Source of the DNA: a virus | Strand: one strand, 5' to 3' | Virus genome (UHGV): UHGV-0173641 | Length of the DNA: 23,184 nucleotides | Part shown: piece by piece, positions 3,800 to 10,590 of the stretch | Layout of the letters: every line of letters begins with the position of its first letter | Numbering within the stretch: position 1 is the stretch's first letter | The notes under the pieces: model-generated | The model's database searches: none | What the model saw: only the letters and a program-made list of their open reading frames with translations | Told to the model about the DNA's origin: nothing | Position numbers and translations under genes: made by a program

Positions 3800-4062
3800 C
3801 CATTCTGGACTACATCGCTACCCATCCGGGTTGTAGCGGCGGAGAAATCGCAGCAGCACTGAATACTCCAACCACAGCCATTAATGCTGAGTTACGCCAA
3901 CTTTGGCGCGGCGGCTTAGTCATCAGAACAAACCGCAGCACAGGTGGTCGCGCTCGCAAAACTGGAGGCCAGGCTTCTTACCACGTAAACCCGATGCCGT
4001 TCGGGTGTAGCAATCCACTTACTCACATGTTTAACCAGCTACTGAAGGAAGCCAGAGCATGA
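3796..4062 (+). CDS. Hypothetical protein (88 aa), possible winged-helix DNA-binding fold
   Basis: ORF coupled to neighbours by ATGA overlaps at both ends. N-terminal segment (ILDYIATHPGCSGGEIAAALN...INAELRQLWRGGLV) looks wHTH-like; fold assignment is inference. Confidence 0.55.
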   Translation: MTILDYIATHPGCSGGEIAAALNTPTTAINAELRQLWRGGLVIRTNRSTGGRARKTGGQASYHVNPMPFGCSNPLTHMFNQLLKEARA

Positions 4063-4358
4063 GCACCATCAACCACCAGAAGCTACGCGAACTGGCATTT
4101 GCCCTGCAACGAATGGCAACGCCTCAAAAATTACTGGCATTTCGCGCAATGCTCTCGCCGTCTGCTGTGCTGGCACTGCTGGATGAGCTGGAGCACGCCA
4201 GAACCACGGCTCCTGCCATTCGCCTCACGCTCCATCATGAAATCACTGATTTCTGCGCGACATTGGAGGCGCCGGGCGAACCGGAAACGCCGGAAGCAAT
4301 ACAGCAAGAGCTGCTGCAACGCATTGACAAGGTTTTTGATTTTTTTCTGAACCAGTAA
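4059..4358 (+). CDS. Hypothetical protein (99 aa)
   Basis: ORF with ATGA coupling to the upstream gene; acidic, helical-looking sequence. Confidence 0.55.
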   Translation: MSTINHQKLRELAFALQRMATPQKLLAFRAMLSPSAVLALLDELEHARTTAPAIRLTLHHEITDFCATLEAPGEPETPEAIQQELLQRIDKVFDFFLNQ

Positions 4359-4479
4359 GAAACCAGAACATGCACACACAAAAAAACCGCTTGCCATGCC
4401 TCAATCGGTCAGGTTACATTTCCGCCGCACCTCATAAAACGGGTGCCGGGATTTCCACCCCGCTGACAACTACAGCGCA

Positions 4480-4503
4480 CAACCGCGCCAGCGGTTTTTT
4501 TGT
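4480..4503 (+). terminator. Candidate intrinsic terminator or attenuator inside the early operon
   Basis: aaccgc-gcca-gcggtt hairpin (6-bp stem, 4-nt loop) followed by a T7 run at 4494-4500, inside a ~320 bp non-coding gap. Confidence 0.45.
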
Positions 4504-4680
4504 GCGTACTGTATCGCCACGTCTTTTTCGCACACGAATTATGGTGGGGCGTACGGGGCCGACTTCGGTCGGGCCGGGTTCTGTAGTTGCCGGTTGTGGA
4601 AACCCTGTACGTCTCACCACCCCGAGTTTTCCACCTCTGGATGGTGAGTTTTCAAAACTTGCAACTACAGAGGCCACACC

Positions 4681-4911
4681 ATGGCAAACCGCAAACAGCA
4701 CCGCGCTATCGCGGAGCGTCGTCACATCCAGACTGAAATCAACCGCAGACTTTTCCGCGCATCACGCGTCGCGCAAATCATGCACATCAATATGCTGCAT
4801 GAGCGCAGCCACGCACTATCAAACATCTATTCCGCCGCTGTTTTCAGCTATCTGGCGGATGATCTGCACGAGCTTCAACAGCTCATCCAGCAGCAAAACA
4901 AACTCCATTAA
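4681..4911 (+). CDS. Hypothetical small basic protein (76 aa)
   Basis: ORF with GAGG ~8 nt upstream of the ATG; protein-like composition, unlike the overlapping 205-aa S/T/R-rich frame (4370-4987) that I reject. Confidence 0.45.
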   Translation: MANRKQHRAIAERRHIQTEINRRLFRASRVAQIMHINMLHERSHALSNIYSAAVFSYLADDLHELQQLIQQQNKLH

Positions 4912-4983
4912 TTCCTGTTCCGGGCCTTTCCTGCACCTTGCGGCGGGAGGCCTTCGCACATCTGTAACCAGAGGATTGCCGCA

Positions 4984-5349
4984 ATGATTCTCGCCAACGA
5001 CTTTCTTGAATACCTGCTCAACACAGAGCGTGATCTTGCCGTTCGCGTGCGTGAACGTTATGACATGTACCTGAAATCCCTGCCTGTACCGCAGCTCGCT
5101 GACGGAAAGATTGTTATTGATGGTCGCTACATGATTGACAGCCACGAGGGAAATTACAGGCTTTACCGCATTGAAGGTGGCACCCCGTACGTTATTGGCA
5201 TTTACCAGCGCCCATCCTCTGCAATCGTCGATGTGATTGCCGACAGCATCCGCATCACACATCGCCATGCCGACACAGAAGACACCGTGCTGGAAATTCA
5301 GCGGCTGGCTACAGTCTGCCGCGACACCCTGAATGGCATGACGAAGTAA
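4984..5349 (+). CDS. Hypothetical protein (121 aa) immediately upstream of replication gene A
   Basis: ORF with GAGG upstream; stop 6 bp before the A start. Occupies the position of a replication accessory gene (P2 B-like position) but no similarity recognised. Confidence 0.55.
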   Translation: MILANDFLEYLLNTERDLAVRVRERYDMYLKSLPVPQLADGKIVIDGRYMIDSHEGNYRLYRIEGGTPYVIGIYQRPSSAIVDVIADSIRITHRHADTEDTVLEIQRLATVCRDTLNGMTK

Positions 5350-5355
5350 ATCACT

Positions 5356-8178
5356 ATGACGGCAGAGTACATCAGGGACTGGCAACAACCGCGCCACGCA
5401 GTGGGGCGTGAAGGAACGGGGATCCCCGCTCCTGAATCCGCGCTTTCCTCCTGGCTGGATGCTTACCGGGCAGAGAACGAGCGCCGCCAGGAAATGGCTG
5501 ATGCGGCGTTCTCCGCCACGCCGCTGGGCAACCTGATTAATAAAAGCCTGGACGCACAGGAAAAACAGGACAAAACCATCACACTGGCAGGAGACGCCAG
5601 AAAACAGGCACGCGGCGCGGTGGATGAAGCCATGGCCTCGCTGCGCCTGCTGCCGTCCTATCTGCGCGATCCGCTTATTCGCCACCTCTCCTTCCTGCGC
5701 AAAAAACAGGAAGCCGATCGCCAGAAAGGCAAAAAGAGCTGGCAGGCTGAACGCTACGCGCGCGGAACCCTGCGCAAAATATTCGAACGTCTGGACCGCA
5801 CCGACCACCGCTGGCTGACACGGGGTTATCGCGCCCTTGCCGGACGCGAACGCCTGGACGATTTGCTTTACCTGCCGCAGCTCAACAAGCACCAGATACA
5901 GACGCTGGCCACCATGACGGCGGCGATGTTCAGCAGCACCTTCGAAAAACTCTGCAATGGCTTTGGCGCGACCGATGGCGAGCTGACCATGGATGTAACC
6001 CTGAAGGCGTATCAGATGCTGGCCCGCATGGCGTTACACCTGCACGCCATGCCTCCACATTATGACGCACTGACAACAGACAAAGACCGGAGGAACGAAC
6101 CGGACACGGAACTGCTGCCGGGCGCAATCCTTCGCCTGACCTGTGCGGAATGGTGGAAACGCAAACTGTGGCTGTTACGTTGCGAGTGGAGAGAAGAACA
6201 ACTCCGCGCCGCCTGTCTGGTTTCCAGAAAGACATCGCCCTATCTGAGCCAGGACGCGTTAAGCGAGTTTCGCGCACAGCGCGAGAAAACACGCGATTTC
6301 CTGAAAAGTTTCATGCTGGAAAACGAAGATGGGTTCACGATTGATCTCGAGACAGTGTATTACGCGGGAGTAAGTAACCCGGTTCACCGTAAGGCAGAAA
6401 TGATGGCCACCATGAAGGGGCTGGAACTTCTGGCCGAAGCCCGTGGCGACAAAGCGGTGTTTCTGACTGTCACCTGCCCGTCAAAATACCACGCCACAAC
6501 AGAGAACGGTCATCCGAATCCCAAATGGAACGGGGCCACCATGCGCGACTCCAGCGATTACCTGGTTAACACGTTTTTTGCGGCGGTCCGCAAGAAACTG
6601 AACCGCGACGGCCTGCGCTGGTATGGCATCCGCACGGTGGAGCCTCACCATGACGGCACCGTGCACTGGCATATGATGGTCTTTGCTCATCCGGAAGAAA
6701 TCGACAGCATCGTGGCCATCACCCGCGATATTGCCATTCAGGAAGACCGCCACGAGCTGGGCAATGATATTACTCCGCGCTTTAAGGCGGAGTATGTCGA
6801 CGGCTCAAAAGGCACACCAACCAGCTACATCGCGACCTACATCGGGAAAAACCTGGACAGCCGTGCCGTGGATGGCATCGACCCGAAAACGGGCAAGCCA
6901 CGCGTTGACCACGAAACCGGAAAATCAATGGCCGAGAGCGTGGAACGCGCCATCGGCTGGGCGCGCCTTCACCGGGTCCGCCAGTTCCAGTTCTTTGGCA
7001 TCCCCTCCCGCCAGGTATGGCGTGAACTGCGCCGCCTTGCCAGCCAGATGGCACGCAACCCGGAAGGCCCGCAACGGCTGAAGGATGACGCAATGGATGC
7101 GGTTCTTGCCGCCGCTGATGCCGGATGTTTTGCCACCTACATAGAGAAACAGGGCGGCGTACTTGTTCCACGCAAAGACTACCTGATTCGCACCGCCTAC
7201 GACCTCGCCGATGAGCTGAACGATTACGGCGAACAGAGCGTACAGATTTACGGGATCTGGTCACCACTCATCGGGGAATCCTCCCGTGTGTGCACGCATC
7301 CGGATAACTGGAAGCTGGTAAGACGCAAACCGGAAGCGAAAGACAGCGCCAGCGAAAATGGTTTTGACCTTCAGGGCGGCCCTGCCGCCCCTTGGACTCG
7401 TGGCAATAACTGTCCCCGTGTACAGGAAACGGACAACAACGGGACAGAACAGCCGGAAGAACGGCCAGCACCGTGGCCGCAGCTTCCTGACGGCGTTGAT
7501 GTGGATGAATGGATGCGCTCACTGAAACGGCACGAACGCCGGGCGCTGATGCGTTCGCTGCGTGACAAACAGGCAAAAAACAGCAGTGATGAAATGCAGA
7601 GCTGGACACAGAGCCGCAAACAGCAGCGGCCTTTGCCTGATAACCACGAATTACTCGCTAAAGAATGGCGGGAGTCTGCCGAATCTCTCGGCCTGCATAT
7701 CGGTGAACAGCAGATGCAGCACCTGTTACGGGGCGGCAGCCTGTACGTTGACGGCAGCATCATTGCACCGCAGGGATTTGAAATTGTACGCAAACCGGAT
7801 ACCCGCCCGGACAGCCGAATCACGCAGCTCTGGCAGCGCCTGAGCCGTAATCACGGCGTAAGCAGCACGGAGATCCGCCATAACCCGGTCGCCGGCTATC
7901 TGGAACAGCTGGGGGCATCAGACCCCGAAGCCGCCGCACGCCTGGCATCCACACTTCAGCAGGACCAGAACACCATGAAAACCCCCGTTACCGTGCTTTC
8001 TGACATGCTGCGCGCCATCCGTGACGCAGAGCACGCACAGAGAATCAGTGAAACCACTGAACGCGCCCGCCGCAAAGCAGACCTGCTGCGGGGTAGCCTG
8101 ACCAGTGGAAACAAAAAACAGACAGAAACGGGATTCACAAAACCCGTAAATGAGCAAAAAACGCGCCGCGATATATGA
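5356..8178 (+). CDS. A: Replication initiation endonuclease, P2 gpA-like rolling-circle initiator (940 aa)
   Basis: Large ORF in the P2 A position. Contains an H-x-H (HWH) and paired tyrosines (YIATYIGKN) consistent with the HUH rolling-circle motifs of this family. About 180 aa longer than P2 A as I recall it (761 aa), with a charged/low-complexity C-terminal third. Confidence 0.85.
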   Translation: MTAEYIRDWQQPRHAVGREGTGIPAPESALSSWLDAYRAENERRQEMADAAFSATPLGNLINKSLDAQEKQDKTITLAGDARKQARGAVDEAMASLRLLPSYLRDPLIRHLSFLRKKQEADRQKGKKSWQAERYARGTLRKIFERLDRTDHRWLTRGYRALAGRERLDDLLYLPQLNKHQIQTLATMTAAMFSSTFEKLCNGFGATDGELTMDVTLKAYQMLARMALHLHAMPPHYDALTTDKDRRNEPDTELLPGAILRLTCAEWWKRKLWLLRCEWREEQLRAACLVSRKTSPYLSQDALSEFRAQREKTRDFLKSFMLENEDGFTIDLETVYYAGVSNPVHRKAEMMATMKGLELLAEARGDKAVFLTVTCPSKYHATTENGHPNPKWNGATMRDSSDYLVNTFFAAVRKKLNRDGLRWYGIRTVEPHHDGTVHWHMMVFAHPEEIDSIVAITRDIAIQEDRHELGNDITPRFKAEYVDGSKGTPTSYIATYIGKNLDSRAVDGIDPKTGKPRVDHETGKSMAESVERAIGWARLHRVRQFQFFGIPSRQVWRELRRLASQMARNPEGPQRLKDDAMDAVLAAADAGCFATYIEKQGGVLVPRKDYLIRTAYDLADELNDYGEQSVQIYGIWSPLIGESSRVCTHPDNWKLVRRKPEAKDSASENGFDLQGGPAAPWTRGNNCPRVQETDNNGTEQPEERPAPWPQLPDGVDVDEWMRSLKRHERRALMRSLRDKQAKNSSDEMQSWTQSRKQQRPLPDNHELLAKEWRESAESLGLHIGEQQMQHLLRGGSLYVDGSIIAPQGFEIVRKPDTRPDSRITQLWQRLSRNHGVSSTEIRHNPVAGYLEQLGASDPEAAARLASTLQQDQNTMKTPVTVLSDMLRAIRDAEHAQRISETTERARRKADLLRGSLTSGNKKQTETGFTKPVNEQKTRRDI

Positions 8179-8226
8179 AGCGCGCATAAAACAGGCAAAA
8201 ACGGGATTTAAAAACCCCGTAAACGA
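8113..8226. repeat. Two ~41-bp direct repeats (8113-8153 and 8186-8226), each with an internal ACGGG...CCCGT dyad; candidate parC-like centromere/operator
   Basis: aaaaaacagacagaaacgggattcacaaaacccgtaaatga versus ataaaacaggcaaaaacgggatttaaaaaccccgtaaacga, about 34 of 41 identical by hand alignment, 73 bp start-to-start. Copy 1 lies in the last codons of A, copy 2 in the gap upstream of the ParM-like gene. Confidence 0.6.
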
Positions 8227-8254
8227 TTAATTAATCAACATAAGGAAAATCGAC

Positions 8255-9214
8255 ATGAAAATCTGTATCGACGACGGCTCCACCAACATCAAGCTGGCAT
8301 GGACTGAGAACGGCGAACGCCGCAACGCCATCAGCCCGAACAGCTTCAAATCGGAATGGTCTGCGCCGTTCGGTGGCATGCAGCCCGCAAACTACATGCT
8401 TGATGGCGTGCGCTATGGTTTTGATCCGGTCAGCGATCGATTTGTCCAGACGACCGACACGCAATACCAGTACAGCGATGTGAATGTAATTGCCATTCAT
8501 CACGCGCTGGTCAAATCAGGCATCACGCCACAGGAGGTGGATGTGGTTGTCACCCTGCCACTGAGCGAGTATTTCGACACAAACGCACAACCGGACATGG
8601 CCAACATCAACCGCAAAAAAGCGAACGTTATGCGCCCGGTGGAATACCAGAACGGCGAAGCATTCACTATCCGTAATGTACGGGTTATGCCTGAATCCAT
8701 TCCGGCTGGCTTTAAAGCACTGGCTGACATGAGTCCGTTTGAATCCCTGCTGATTGTGGATTTAGGCGGAACCACGCTGGATGTGGCAAAGGTTCAGGGA
8801 CAACTGGCAGGTATCAGCCAGGTGTTTTGCGATCCACACGTAGGCGTTTCCCTGATGGCCGATGCCGTACTGTCGGTGATGGCCACCAACGGTATGCGTA
8901 CCAGTCACCACATCGCCAATACCATTATCGAACATCGCCATGATGAAGCCTGGCTGCGCCAGCACATCCACAATGACGCGCATTACGGCAGCCTGATGGC
9001 GGTTATTCGTGAAAAGGAAGAAACACTGAAACAACGAGTGATCCGCGCGCTGGCGGGTTTTTCGGGTTACGGGCGGGTGATGGTTGTCGGTGGCGGGGCG
9101 GAGATTGTGGCACCCGCTATCCGCGAAGCCTGCGGAGTTAATGCGGCTTTCATCGCAGACGGGGTGCCACAGTTTGCTCTGGTCAATGGTTTGTACGCAA
9201 TGGACAAGGAGTAA
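8255..9214 (+). CDS. parM: ParM/StbA-like actin-type ATPase (type II plasmid partition family)
   Basis: 319 aa. N-terminus MKICIDDGSTNIKLAW and LIVDLGGTTLDVAK, plus SDVNVIAIHHAL, VMPESIPAG, MVVGGGAE and LVNGLY, match plasmid R1 ParM as I recall it (MLVFIDDGSTNIKLQW..., LIIDLGGTTLDIS, VMVIGGGAE). Strong AAGGA RBS. Confidence 0.88.
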   Translation: MKICIDDGSTNIKLAWTENGERRNAISPNSFKSEWSAPFGGMQPANYMLDGVRYGFDPVSDRFVQTTDTQYQYSDVNVIAIHHALVKSGITPQEVDVVVTLPLSEYFDTNAQPDMANINRKKANVMRPVEYQNGEAFTIRNVRVMPESIPAGFKALADMSPFESLLIVDLGGTTLDVAKVQGQLAGISQVFCDPHVGVSLMADAVLSVMATNGMRTSHHIANTIIEHRHDEAWLRQHIHNDAHYGSLMAVIREKEETLKQRVIRALAGFSGYGRVMVVGGGAEIVAPAIREACGVNAAFIADGVPQFALVNGLYAMDKE

Positions 9215-9218
9215 ACCC

Positions 9219-9530
9219 ATGACGACATCAACCTGGCGGATAAGTTTCTATCTGAAGCCCTCCGCTGTCAAGAACGAAGGCGAAGCATGCGCCTGGCTGG
9301 ACAGCCTTACACCAGAAGCCCGCAAAAGCGGCCAACGCGTGGCTTTTCTGGCCGGGCTGGCACTTCTGAAAATGAATCCGGCAGAGGCTTACCGACTGGC
9401 TGCATGGGCTGATGATGAAGTGTTATCAGTGACACAGACCAGGACAGAACGCCCCGCATCACAGCCAGTATCAACCGCACAGATAACCAGTCAGATGGCC
9501 GGAAATATCCGGGCGTTATTTCCTGAATAA
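9219..9530 (+). CDS. parR: ParR/StbB-like adaptor protein (small DNA-binding partner of ParM)
   Basis: 103 aa from ATG 9219, 4 bp after the parM stop, with AAGGAG upstream. ISFYLKPS...LDSLTPEARKSGQRVAFLAGLAL...NIRALFPE resembles R1 ParR as I recall it (IAFKLNPD...LDSIPQGERSRLNRAALTAGLAL...NILRSLFP). The longer ORF-track start at 9084 is rejected. Confidence 0.65.
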   Translation: MTTSTWRISFYLKPSAVKNEGEACAWLDSLTPEARKSGQRVAFLAGLALLKMNPAEAYRLAAWADDEVLSVTQTRTERPASQPVSTAQITSQMAGNIRALFPE

Positions 9531-9536
9531 CACAAC

Positions 9537-9558
9537 ATCAGGGCGAGTTCGCCCTGAT
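9537..9558. promoter_or_regulatory. Perfect 10-bp inverted repeat (atcagggcga-gt-tcgccctgat): candidate operator or terminator stem
   Basis: Palindrome between the parR-like stop (9530) and the GTG start at 9583. No T-run follows, so a protein-binding site or RNA stem is as likely as a terminator. Confidence 0.45.
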
Positions 9559-9582
9559 AACACTATCCAAAGGAGGCAAGCA

Positions 9583-10590
9583 GTGAGCATCATTCAGCGC
9601 TGCCGAGCAGAAAACACTTTTAATTTGGTTTCCATGTCTGGCGGGAAAGACTCACTGGCGCAATGTTTGTATGCCATAGAAAACGATATACAGCATGAGC
9701 GAGTGTTTGCTGATACGGGGCACGAACACCCACAAACGATGGAGTACCTTGACTATCTGGAACAAAAGCTGGGACCAATTCGCCGCGTAAAAGCCGACTT
9801 CACTCGCCAGATAGAAGGTAAGCGCAAATTCATTGCTGAAAAATGGCCAGTATCTCTTGTTGCAGAGTGCGGAATGACGCCTGATGAAGCAGCGGAACGT
9901 GTTGCTTGTGCGCTGGAAATCCTCCACCCAACCGGAAATCCATTTCTTGATCTGTGCATGTGGAAAGGTCGTTTCCCGAGCACTAAAGCGCGGTTCTGTA
10001 CATTCGAACTGAAACACGAACCAGTGCGCACTCAGGTGGTGCAACCTGCGCTTGATGAATATGACGAAGTTATCTCCTGGCAGGGTGTGCGTGCTCAGGA
10101 ATCGCCATCGAGGGCACGCCTGCAAGTGTGGGAGGAAGATGCGGACAATACCCCCGGATTGCATGTCTATCGTCCGATTTTCAACTGGCTACATGAGGAT
10201 GTTTTCGCTATTGCCAGGCGTCACGGGATTAAACCCAACCCGCTCTACCAACAAGGATGCAGCCGCGTTGGGTGTATGCCATGCATTCATGCCAGAAAAT
10301 CTGAACTGGCGGAAATTTTTCAGCGTTGGCCAGAGGAAATCGCCAGAGTGGCAGAGTGGGAACGATTAGTTGCAGCCTGCTCTCGCCGCGGCAACTCAAC
10401 GTTTTTCCCGTCAACTCATGACCCGCGCCGGGCAGAACGTCGCATAGATGTTGTTACCGTAGACAGCTACGGAATCGAAACCTATCGCGACTGGGCAATG
10501 ACAACCCGGGGCGGCGCTCAATTTGACCTGCTGGCGAGCACGAACGATAAGGCGGTGTGCAACAGTGTTTATGCGGGAGTATGCGAATGA
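9583..10590 (+). CDS. PAPS reductase-like / PP-loop ATP pyrophosphatase family protein (335 aa) with C-terminal Cys cluster
   Basis: N-terminal PP-loop SMSGGKDS (SGGxDS) typical of the PAPS reductase / DndC-like superfamily. Cysteine cluster CSRVGCMPC (Cx4Cx2C). GTG start with strong AAAGGAGG RBS. Last gene before the cos region. Confidence 0.8.
   Translation: MSIIQRCRAENTFNLVSMSGGKDSLAQCLYAIENDIQHERVFADTGHEHPQTMEYLDYLEQKLGPIRRVKADFTRQIEGKRKFIAEKWPVSLVAECGMTPDEAAERVACALEILHPTGNPFLDLCMWKGRFPSTKARFCTFELKHEPVRTQVVQPALDEYDEVISWQGVRAQESPSRARLQVWEEDADNTPGLHVYRPIFNWLHEDVFAIARRHGIKPNPLYQQGCSRVGCMPCIHARKSELAEIFQRWPEEIARVAEWERLVAACSRRGNSTFFPSTHDPRRAERRIDVVTVDSYGIETYRDWAMTTRGGAQFDLLASTNDKAVCNSVYAGVCE

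Follow-up and report, generated by a model that had tools for sequence, protein, structure and literature searches.

Two RNAs of curated families lie in a gap of the early operon

The stretch of DNA analysed here (the window, 23,184 nucleotides, nt) comes from the virus genome UHGV-0173641 and represents the left end of a P2-like (P88-type) prophage, whose early operon is directed along the + strand. Between position 4358, where an early open reading frame (ORF) ends, and position 4681, the start of the next gene whose protein has homologues (it encodes a homologue of the P4 epsilon derepression protein), lies a gap of 322 base pairs (bp). The original prediction, made from the letters alone, had described it as a structured, non-coding interruption of the early operon, which could be an attenuator of replication-gene expression, a small RNA or a cluster of binding sites. 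The position of the gap was reproduced, and we regard it with good confidence as a control module of the P4/P1 antisense-RNA type, placed within the prophage's early operon. By scanning the whole window against Rfam, exactly two matches above the gathering score were obtained, namely isrK and the C4 antisense RNA, both on the + strand and both inside the gap, and a permissive scan of 4200–5500 returned no further RNA family and no riboswitch or leader family. The suspected small RNA is in fact two, each in a curated family. The features of the gap and of the gene that follows it are:

4391–4420, +, predicted internal sigma-70 promoter (promoter scan; −35 TTGCCA at 4391–4396, 18-nt spacer, −10 TACATT at 4415–4420)
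4427–4501, +, IsrK / P4 seqA-like small RNA (Rfam RF01394, 63.6 bits versus a gathering score of 50, E = 1e-11)
4427–4446, +, isrK hairpin 1
4447–4462, +, isrK hairpin 2
4452–4458, +, site a1, TTTCCAC, in the loop of isrK hairpin 2, complementary to a′
4467–4475, +, site b1, CAACTACAG, inside isrK, complementary to b′
4481–4496, +, stem AACCGC/GCGGTT of the predicted intrinsic terminator at the 3′ end of the isrK match, with a run of seven T at 4495–4501 (terminator scan)
4537–4624, +, C4 / P4 CI-like antisense RNA (Rfam RF01695, 80.5 bits versus a gathering score of 45, E = 1.3e-14, full-length model match)
4542–4558 with 4603–4619, +, C4 closing helix, 17 bp
4557–4575, +, GC-rich TTCG (UUCG) hairpin GGCCGACTTCGGTCGGGCC, first inner C4 hairpin (4559–4572 in the C4 fold)
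4573–4594, +, second inner C4 hairpin, with a 12-nt loop carrying b′
4579–4590 (loop also placed at 4578–4589; core 4581–4589), +, b′ recognition loop, 12 nt, UUCUGUAGUUGC
4596–4602, +, a′ recognition segment, GUGGAAA, unpaired in C4
4628–4634, +, site a2, TTTCCAC, complementary to a′
4661–4672 (core 4662–4670), +, site b2, GCAACTACAGAG, overlapping the Shine-Dalgarno sequence of the epsilon-like gene
4669–4673, Shine-Dalgarno sequence AGAGG of the epsilon-like gene, 7 nt before the ATG at 4681
4681–4911, +, epsilon-like gene, 76 amino acids (aa), homologue of the P4 epsilon derepression protein (Pfam PF25738, 31.8 bits versus a cutoff of 27)

In the isrK match, the segment with b1 is single-stranded and lies between hairpin 2 and the terminator; the latter is the hairpin with seven T that had been noticed at 4480–4503. 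The single-sequence fold reproduced the Rfam structure with a folding z-score of −2.8, and compensatory changes were detected by RNAalifold in 5 of the 6 pairs of hairpin 1. The predicted transcript start at ~4427 is the first base of the isrK match, and a corresponding spacing recurs elsewhere, the −10 hexamer ending 6 nt 5′ of isrK position 1 in all the units printed (14/14, P4 PLE included), while the promoter region is nearly invariant among P88-like phages. An own promoter and a Rho-independent terminator are thereby both predicted from sequence for isrK.

The GC-rich hairpin with a TTCG loop, previously placed at about 4556–4575, is the first inner hairpin of C4, whose minimum-energy fold is the Rfam fold (z = −3.4). 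Across 23 distinct C4 sequences, which came from P88-like and lambdoid phages, from N15 and P4, and from one Yersinia and one Hafnia phage, 99.8% of the cells were paired and 14 of the 27 pairs exhibited double compensatory changes, compared with 34–47% paired in the slid-register controls; an invariant ACC follows directly after the closing helix. The covariation across phages that had been proposed as a check on the hairpins was therefore found in both RNAs. RNAs of the C4 class are stable, are processed from a longer precursor (by RNase P) and repress in trans. In the fetched loci carrying either RNA, the order was constant, with isrK followed by C4 in 13 of 13, and the spacing between the two was 21–35 nt, being 35 nt here and 107 nt in P4.

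The recognition sites of C4 and their targets change together

The two recognition sites of C4, a′ and b′, are each complementary to two target sites, with predicted duplexes of 12 pairs including one G-U for b′:b2, 9 nt for b′:b1, and 7 nt each for a′:a1 and a′:a2. Across the gap, four close relatives hardly differ outside six patches, and these change together. The alleles of the a and b sites are TTTCCAC and CAACTACAG in the window and P88, TTCGCAG and CTACACAAG in 569R5, and TTGGAAC and CAACCAAAG in Citrobacter phiSM, and in all of these alike a′ and b′ are the exact reverse complements of the element's own sites.

A set of 85 P88-like loci with 54 distinct sequences was assembled, mostly from a viral-contig scan with the epsilon-like protein (80 loci; a genome-contig scan with the same protein gave only 3), and the site alleles were taken from the alignment columns. 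There were 5 a-alleles and 10 b-alleles, reassorted into 16 combinations. Every triad was intact, i.e. all three copies had changed together, in the 16 P88-like combinations and in the 27 diverse units that include them. Over the 27 units, the summed complementarity averaged 31.7 nt for cognate versus 22.5 nt for non-cognate pairings, and the best b′ match 3′ of C4 ended 7–10 nt before a downstream ATG in 22. Since the co-varying patches are related as reverse complements, with G-U tolerated, the triads bear an RNA–RNA signature, and their co-change is, as judged from these alignments, the pattern expected of RNA–RNA recognition under selection for distinct specificities. We are highly confident that the two RNAs are members of the IsrK and C4 families with the pairing sites listed above.

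The module precedes a putative antirepressor gene

The epsilon-like gene matched P4 epsilon by BLASTP with 29% identity over 66 residues (E = 2e-8); its substitutions are enriched at third codon positions, and it is C-rich and G-poor (32.5% versus 19.5%). P4 epsilon inactivates the P2 C repressor (PMC2669165), and the window encodes a repressor homologous to P2 C (PDB 2XCJ/2L49, E = 5e-16). By analogy, we infer an antirepressor role for the 76-aa protein, which would include binding of the P2 C-type repressor, and it is probable that the RNA module controls this antirepressor. The P2-like prophage Sp13, which has an epsilon homologue, is inducible by mitomycin through an unknown route (PMC2669165), and P88 was obtained by mitomycin C induction (PMC5285337). 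Using the pattern only, the LexA-type sequence CTGT-N8-ACAG was found once in the window, inside the replication gene A, and nowhere near the module, which is no more than expected by chance.

Alternative folds of the leader and the dyad

Between C4 and b2, two further features were located:

4613–4648, +, alternative hairpin with a2 in its loop, in which the 3′ strand of the C4 closing helix (4613–4619) pairs with TGGTGAG (4642–4648)
4647–4659, perfect dyad AGTTTT-C-AAAACT, in the A/T-rich spacer between the a2 hairpin and b2

The alternative hairpin was predicted by folding, and RNAalifold on 14 diverse units revealed compensatory changes in 5 of its 7 pairs. It and the folded C4 are mutually exclusive, resembling the alternative conformations of the Gifsy-1 leader (PMC4825925). 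Folding of the whole leader (4427–4700) gave a z-score of −4.8 and brought together, in cis, b′ and b2 as well as a′ and a2.

The perfect dyad that had been reported upstream of the next ORF does exist, at 4647–4659 and not at 4642–4654, and its left arm touches the end of the alternative hairpin. As it is kept in only 16 of the 54 distinct relatives, it is not conserved and is probably incidental, and a role of the dyad as an operator was rejected on the same ground.

One frame stays open across the module and is not conserved as a protein

The sole long frame across the gap is, as noted before, an S/T/R-rich one of 205 aa:

4370–4987, +, 205-codon frame ('Ash') with many S, T, R and P residues, a putative eta-like read-through ORF

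Its ATG at 4370 precedes the −35 hexamer (4391), and it spans both RNA genes, overlaps the whole epsilon-like gene out of frame (frame 1 versus frame 0) and closes with a stop at 4985–4987, within an ATGA overlap with the next gene (4984). The match of the 205-aa frame to Pfam Phage_ASH (PF10554) is marginal (27.2 bits versus a cutoff of 26). The ASH domain coincides with the DNA of isrK, C4 and a2/b2 in four other long ORFs as well, i.e. P4 eta (82 bits), ST64B Sb41, the 1720a-02 'antirepressor' and the Hafnia yong2 'Ash family protein', and because it does so in every protein tested, Phage_ASH is, on this comparison, the translation of the RNA module.

The frame in the same register relative to C4 was stop-free in 12 of 15 units, and the differences in spacer length among units are mostly multiples of three; stops in that frame occurred in three of the four stand-alone units, i.e. 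those with no co-directional ORF entering from upstream. Among the close relatives, the frame is open from an ATG 5′ of the promoter to the ATGA overlap in 53 of 54. The 46 distinct a/b site alleles would place no stop in this frame versus 8 and 9 in the other two (chance ~0.01). The one sequence with a stop, IMGVR_UViG_2537561977_000027, differs in isrK hairpin 1 as well and has a lengthened b′ loop; it was taken from a 5.3-kb contig and may reflect an error of sequencing or a copy in decay.

In the overlap with the epsilon-like gene, substitutions fall mostly at the second codon position of the 205-codon frame, with synonymous:non-synonymous counts of 76:303 in this frame versus 175:207 in the epsilon frame, and no protein-level purifying selection on the 205-codon frame was seen where it is measurable, namely the C-terminal half that overlaps epsilon. 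Protein identity among the homologues is 77–92% among the matches listed, no higher than the DNA identity of the relatives (~92–93% over 701 nt), and the 205-aa product is low-complexity. The frame, whose translation and protein-level conservation had been named as evidence against a structured RNA element, is thus conserved as an open frame and not at the protein level; the RNA reading stands, while 'non-coding' was too strong a term for a segment in which an open frame is kept and the ASH cutoff is passed.

According to a summary on P4 (PMC10111431), eta contains CI and seqA and is translatable from no promoter but the upstream late one, and this translation averts termination, which lets the late promoter read through. 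On the precedent of P4 eta, we give about even chances to 4370–4987 being a translated eta-like read-through ORF that is not conserved as a protein. Such pass-through translation would allow the operon to tolerate a good terminator 5′ of an essential replication gene.

Comparison with the immunity loci of P4, P1, Gifsy-1 and N15

For the RNA immunity module of P1, P4 and N15, each part is already described, from both RNA families and the logic of the triads to the ORF embedded in the module and the class of antirepressor. P4 seqA and CI are the counterparts of IsrK and C4 (PMC3632133, PMC4825925, PMC10111431), and the isrK and C4 models matched these two, with order and strand as in the window. 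The P4 order of PLE, seqA, CI, seqC, (kil/eta), epsilon, orf151 and alpha parallels the order here of promoter, isrK, C4, epsilon homologue, small ORF and replication gene. In both elements the promoter directly precedes the first RNA, target sites lie on both sides of C4/CI with the downstream one covering a Shine-Dalgarno sequence, a long ORF with a Phage_ASH match begins 5′ of the promoter and spans the RNAs in the same register, and an epsilon homologue comes before the replication gene. However, the element in the window is a complete P2-like phage (helper type) and not a satellite; no kil-like ORF comes in between, which makes epsilon itself the first gene under control; the frame of the eta-like ORF differs from that of this regulated gene, and the ORF runs up to where the next gene starts, whereas P4 eta and kil are nested in frame; and the replication protein is of the P2 gpA type instead of the P4 alpha primase. 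The parallel with P4 stops at epsilon, because ORF121, the small ORF that follows it, shows no similarity to P4 orf151. The P4 module stops transcripts of the internal constitutive promoter before the replication genes (PMC10111431). An attenuator for replication-gene expression, as originally proposed, is close in spirit to this P4 analogy, but the direct target here would be the epsilon-like gene at 4681 and not the replication gene.

Set against its published description, P1/P7 immI (c4, icd, ant) shares with the window the RNA family (RF01695), a′ and b′ reading a and b sites on both sides, coverage of the ribosome-binding site of the first downstream ORF, an antirepressor as the end target, and specificity alleles that differ between relatives (PMC12197685); it differs in that the antirepressor in the window is epsilon-type and not Ant and that no icd-like leader ORF occurs. 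The Gifsy-1 locus isrK/orf45 (STnc1160)/anrP comprises an RNA of the IsrK family that has a promoter of its own and a leaky terminator, then a stable processed RNA and an antirepressor, and alternative RNA structures decide on translation (PMC4825925); Gifsy-1 is lambdoid, though, with an antirepressor unrelated to the epsilon type. IsrK activates antirepressor translation in trans there, and extra IsrK induces Gifsy-1 (PMC4825925). We infer from this likeness that the direction of control by IsrK in the window would be the same.

The N15 anti-immunity locus (CA RNA, antirepressor operon) has an isrK and C4 pair before small ORFs and the Ant antirepressor, and is reportedly under SOS control; unlike the module in the window, that of N15 stands alone, not in an early operon, and its read-through frame is closed by stops. 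In lambdoid phages (L005, L006, L007, L009, L010), isrK–C4 units were observed between a cII-like gene and Rha/antirepressor plus replication genes, and annotators have merged these units into long ORFs named 'antirepressor', 'peptidase' or 'regulatory protein', while the gene really under control seems to begin with the ATG that immediately follows b2 (MAT(I/V)P...).

A model of the module and its alternatives

We propose that in a lysogen the internal promoter would be constitutive, with most transcripts stopping at the isrK terminator as short IsrK, and with read-through transcripts supplying C4, which would be processed out of them. By pairing with a2 and b2, whether in cis or in trans, C4 may then block translation of the antirepressor; the C-rich, G-poor epsilon message, if left untranslated, would be terminated before ORF121 and gene A. 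IsrK would compete for C4 through a1 and b1, as a decoy or a co-target, so that the IsrK:C4 ratio may set the output of antirepressor; the antirepressor, in turn, would free the early promoter by inactivating the P2 C-type repressor of the phage. Transcripts started at the early promoter would be translated through the module as the 205-codon ORF and thereby be insensitive to it, this translation overriding both the internal terminator and antisense pairing, and the ATGA overlap would pass ribosomes on to ORF121 and A.

More tentatively, the 620-bp stretch may be decoded according to the promoter used and at the same time carry an address code in its a and b alleles (5 × 10), a joint proposal that we consider possible and somewhat short of an even chance. 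Read from the internal promoter, the stretch would yield two regulatory RNAs and, when permitted, the epsilon-like antirepressor; read from the early promoter, it would be a 205-codon pass-through in which the act of translation matters and not its product, with the out-of-frame antirepressor gene skipped. The address code would specify which prophages or satellites in one cell silence each other's antirepressors.

Several points weigh against the antisense-RNA control module as set out here. Promoter activity, RNA ends, processing, repression in trans and antirepressor activity are all predicted from the DNA, which fits equally a C4 whose chief effect is on translation (the P1 case) or on termination (the P4 and N15 case). 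No LexA box lies near the module, so that its link to the mitomycin inducibility reported for P88 and Sp13, and thus to SOS, is left without an explanation. The 205-codon ORF has no obvious Shine-Dalgarno sequence and, unlike P4 eta, is out of frame with the regulated gene; the stand-alone unit L004 is also open in that frame, making the correlation with embedding in an operon imperfect; and openness of the C-terminal half goes only weakly beyond chance (P ~0.08 in two tests, namely P = 0.077 by synonymous resampling, and no stops versus 2.4 expected from 44 observed synonymous variants).

Among the alternatives, the most serious is that the RNAs are mainly inter-element devices, with C4 acting in trans on elements of matching specificity, such as incoming or co-resident P4-like satellites and other P88-like and lambdoid phages, and with the control of the phage's own induction secondary. 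The 5 × 10 alleles with reassortment are typical of specificity determinants, some a-alleles are common to unrelated elements (YpM_39, N15), as many as 5 matching places occur in a single E. coli genome, such a role has been suggested for lambdoid prophages (PMC3632133), and P1/P7 heteroimmunity rests on c4 (PMC12197685). Yet every unit has its cognate targets in cis, no b-allele match was found between P88-like and other element types in what is a small sample, and such traffic is compatible with the model above, so we hold this reading as the dominant one to be rather unlikely. Far less probable is a real 'Ash family' regulatory protein of 205 aa encoded by the segment, with the RNA matches and hairpins as by-products of coding, even though the frame is open in 53 of 54 relatives, passes the Phage_ASH cutoff and ends in an ATGA overlap that fits the tight packing of the operon, and even though it matches PHROG families labelled transcriptional regulator or repressor and 853 database proteins, many of the 120 listed being named 'ash family protein'. 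In every protein tested, the extent of the Pfam domain matches isrK, C4 and a2/b2 exactly; the excess of second-codon-position changes (76:303 versus 175:207), a protein identity no higher than that of the DNA and the low-complexity sequence speak against such a protein; reverse-complement triads and stem compensations go beyond what selection on a protein can produce; and the 'repressor' labels may derive from an obsolete P4 'cI gene product' coding sequence (CDS).

Slightly less probable again is a plain transcriptional attenuator of gene A, consisting of the terminator only, with neither a trans-acting RNA nor antirepressor control. A good predicted terminator does lie inside the operon 5′ of A, but such an attenuator would leave unexplained the second, larger conserved RNA, the six co-varying sites with occlusion of the epsilon Shine-Dalgarno sequence, and the conserved promoter directly 5′ of the terminated RNA, and no riboswitch or leader family was matched. 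As for the proposed cluster of protein-binding, operator-like sites, to which a perfect 6-bp dyad just 5′ of the next ORF and repeated short sequences would lend themselves, its probability is very small: the dyad is kept in only 16 of 54 relatives, and the patches, which bear the signature of RNA–RNA pairing, consist of directly repeated copies (a1 = a2, b1 = b2) and a single reverse complement, and lie, with G-U tolerated, where the structured RNA is unpaired. This suggestion was hence abandoned.

An RNA switch acting on an epsilon-type antirepressor would offer a testable induction route for some P2-like prophages such as P88 and O157 Sp13, the C repressor of the P88/Sp13 type having no self-cleavage motif and the question of induction having been left open (PMC2669165). 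It would also mean that a helper-type phage carries the same immunity logic and an antirepressor homologue as the satellite P4, which bears on helper–satellite cross-talk, and the natural 5 × 10 co-varying alleles make a ready-made design table for orthogonal antisense regulators. Our literature search found no paper linking the isrK–C4 module to P2-like phages, and neither the Sp13 paper (PMC2669165) nor the P88 paper (PMC5285337) mentions these RNAs.

Genomic context, prevalence and annotation

The closest published relatives of the prophage are Escherichia phage P88 and other Xuanwuvirus/Peduoviridae phages. Homology to P88 begins at 4377, with 99.4% identity from there onwards; because this start lies just 5′ of the internal promoter, the promoter, the RNAs and the antirepressor appear to form a mobile unit. 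The neighbouring genes are:

237–1256, − strand, integrase
1775–2062, Cox, followed by a run of small early genes
4059–4358, +, early-operon ORF directly 5′ of the gap
starting at 4984, ORF121, between the epsilon-like gene and gene A
5356–8178, gpA-type replication protein (gene A), 940 aa

The 72-nt spacer between the epsilon-like gene and ORF121 (4912–4983) may form a GC-rich hairpin at ~4922–4953 with no T-run, whose fold was no better than that of shuffled sequences (z = −0.77), and 27 of the 72 columns are variable among the relatives. Further downstream (5356–10590 in the window), the Pfam GPA domain covers only residues 179–503 of the 940-aa gpA-type protein, and 3′ of its gene lie genes that are annotated in a RefSeq relative as ParM (plasmid segregation) and a partitioning/stability protein, an unusual cargo for an integrating P2-like prophage.

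Of 5426 complete E. coli genomes, 1389 hold a match to the segment. The 322-bp gap is unannotated in the one RefSeq record that was looked at, and other records show a hypothetical or 'ash family' protein over the segment. The P88 record KP063541 places a − strand hypothetical CDS (5033–5221) over the isrK and C4 genes, which in view of the RNA evidence is probably spurious. The P4 record NC_001609 still has a 'cI gene product / transcriptional repressor' CDS (8168–8584) over the CI RNA region, and the regulator and repressor labels of PHROG families on the translated module may go back to a P4-type CDS of this kind. A P88-like module with an epsilon protein 88% identical to that of the window was also found in NZ_JBQPOM010000071.1 ('Vagococcus sp. 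WN89Y'); as Vagococcus is Gram-positive, contamination or mis-binning is more likely than true presence. Other Rfam matches were observed near isrK–C4 modules in two further phages, i.e. sRNA-Xcc1 in phi191 (2523–2606, 79.6 bits), between the Rha and antirepressor genes, and ryfA in Yersinia phage vB_YpM_39 (149–447, 134.6 bits), 5′ of the module.

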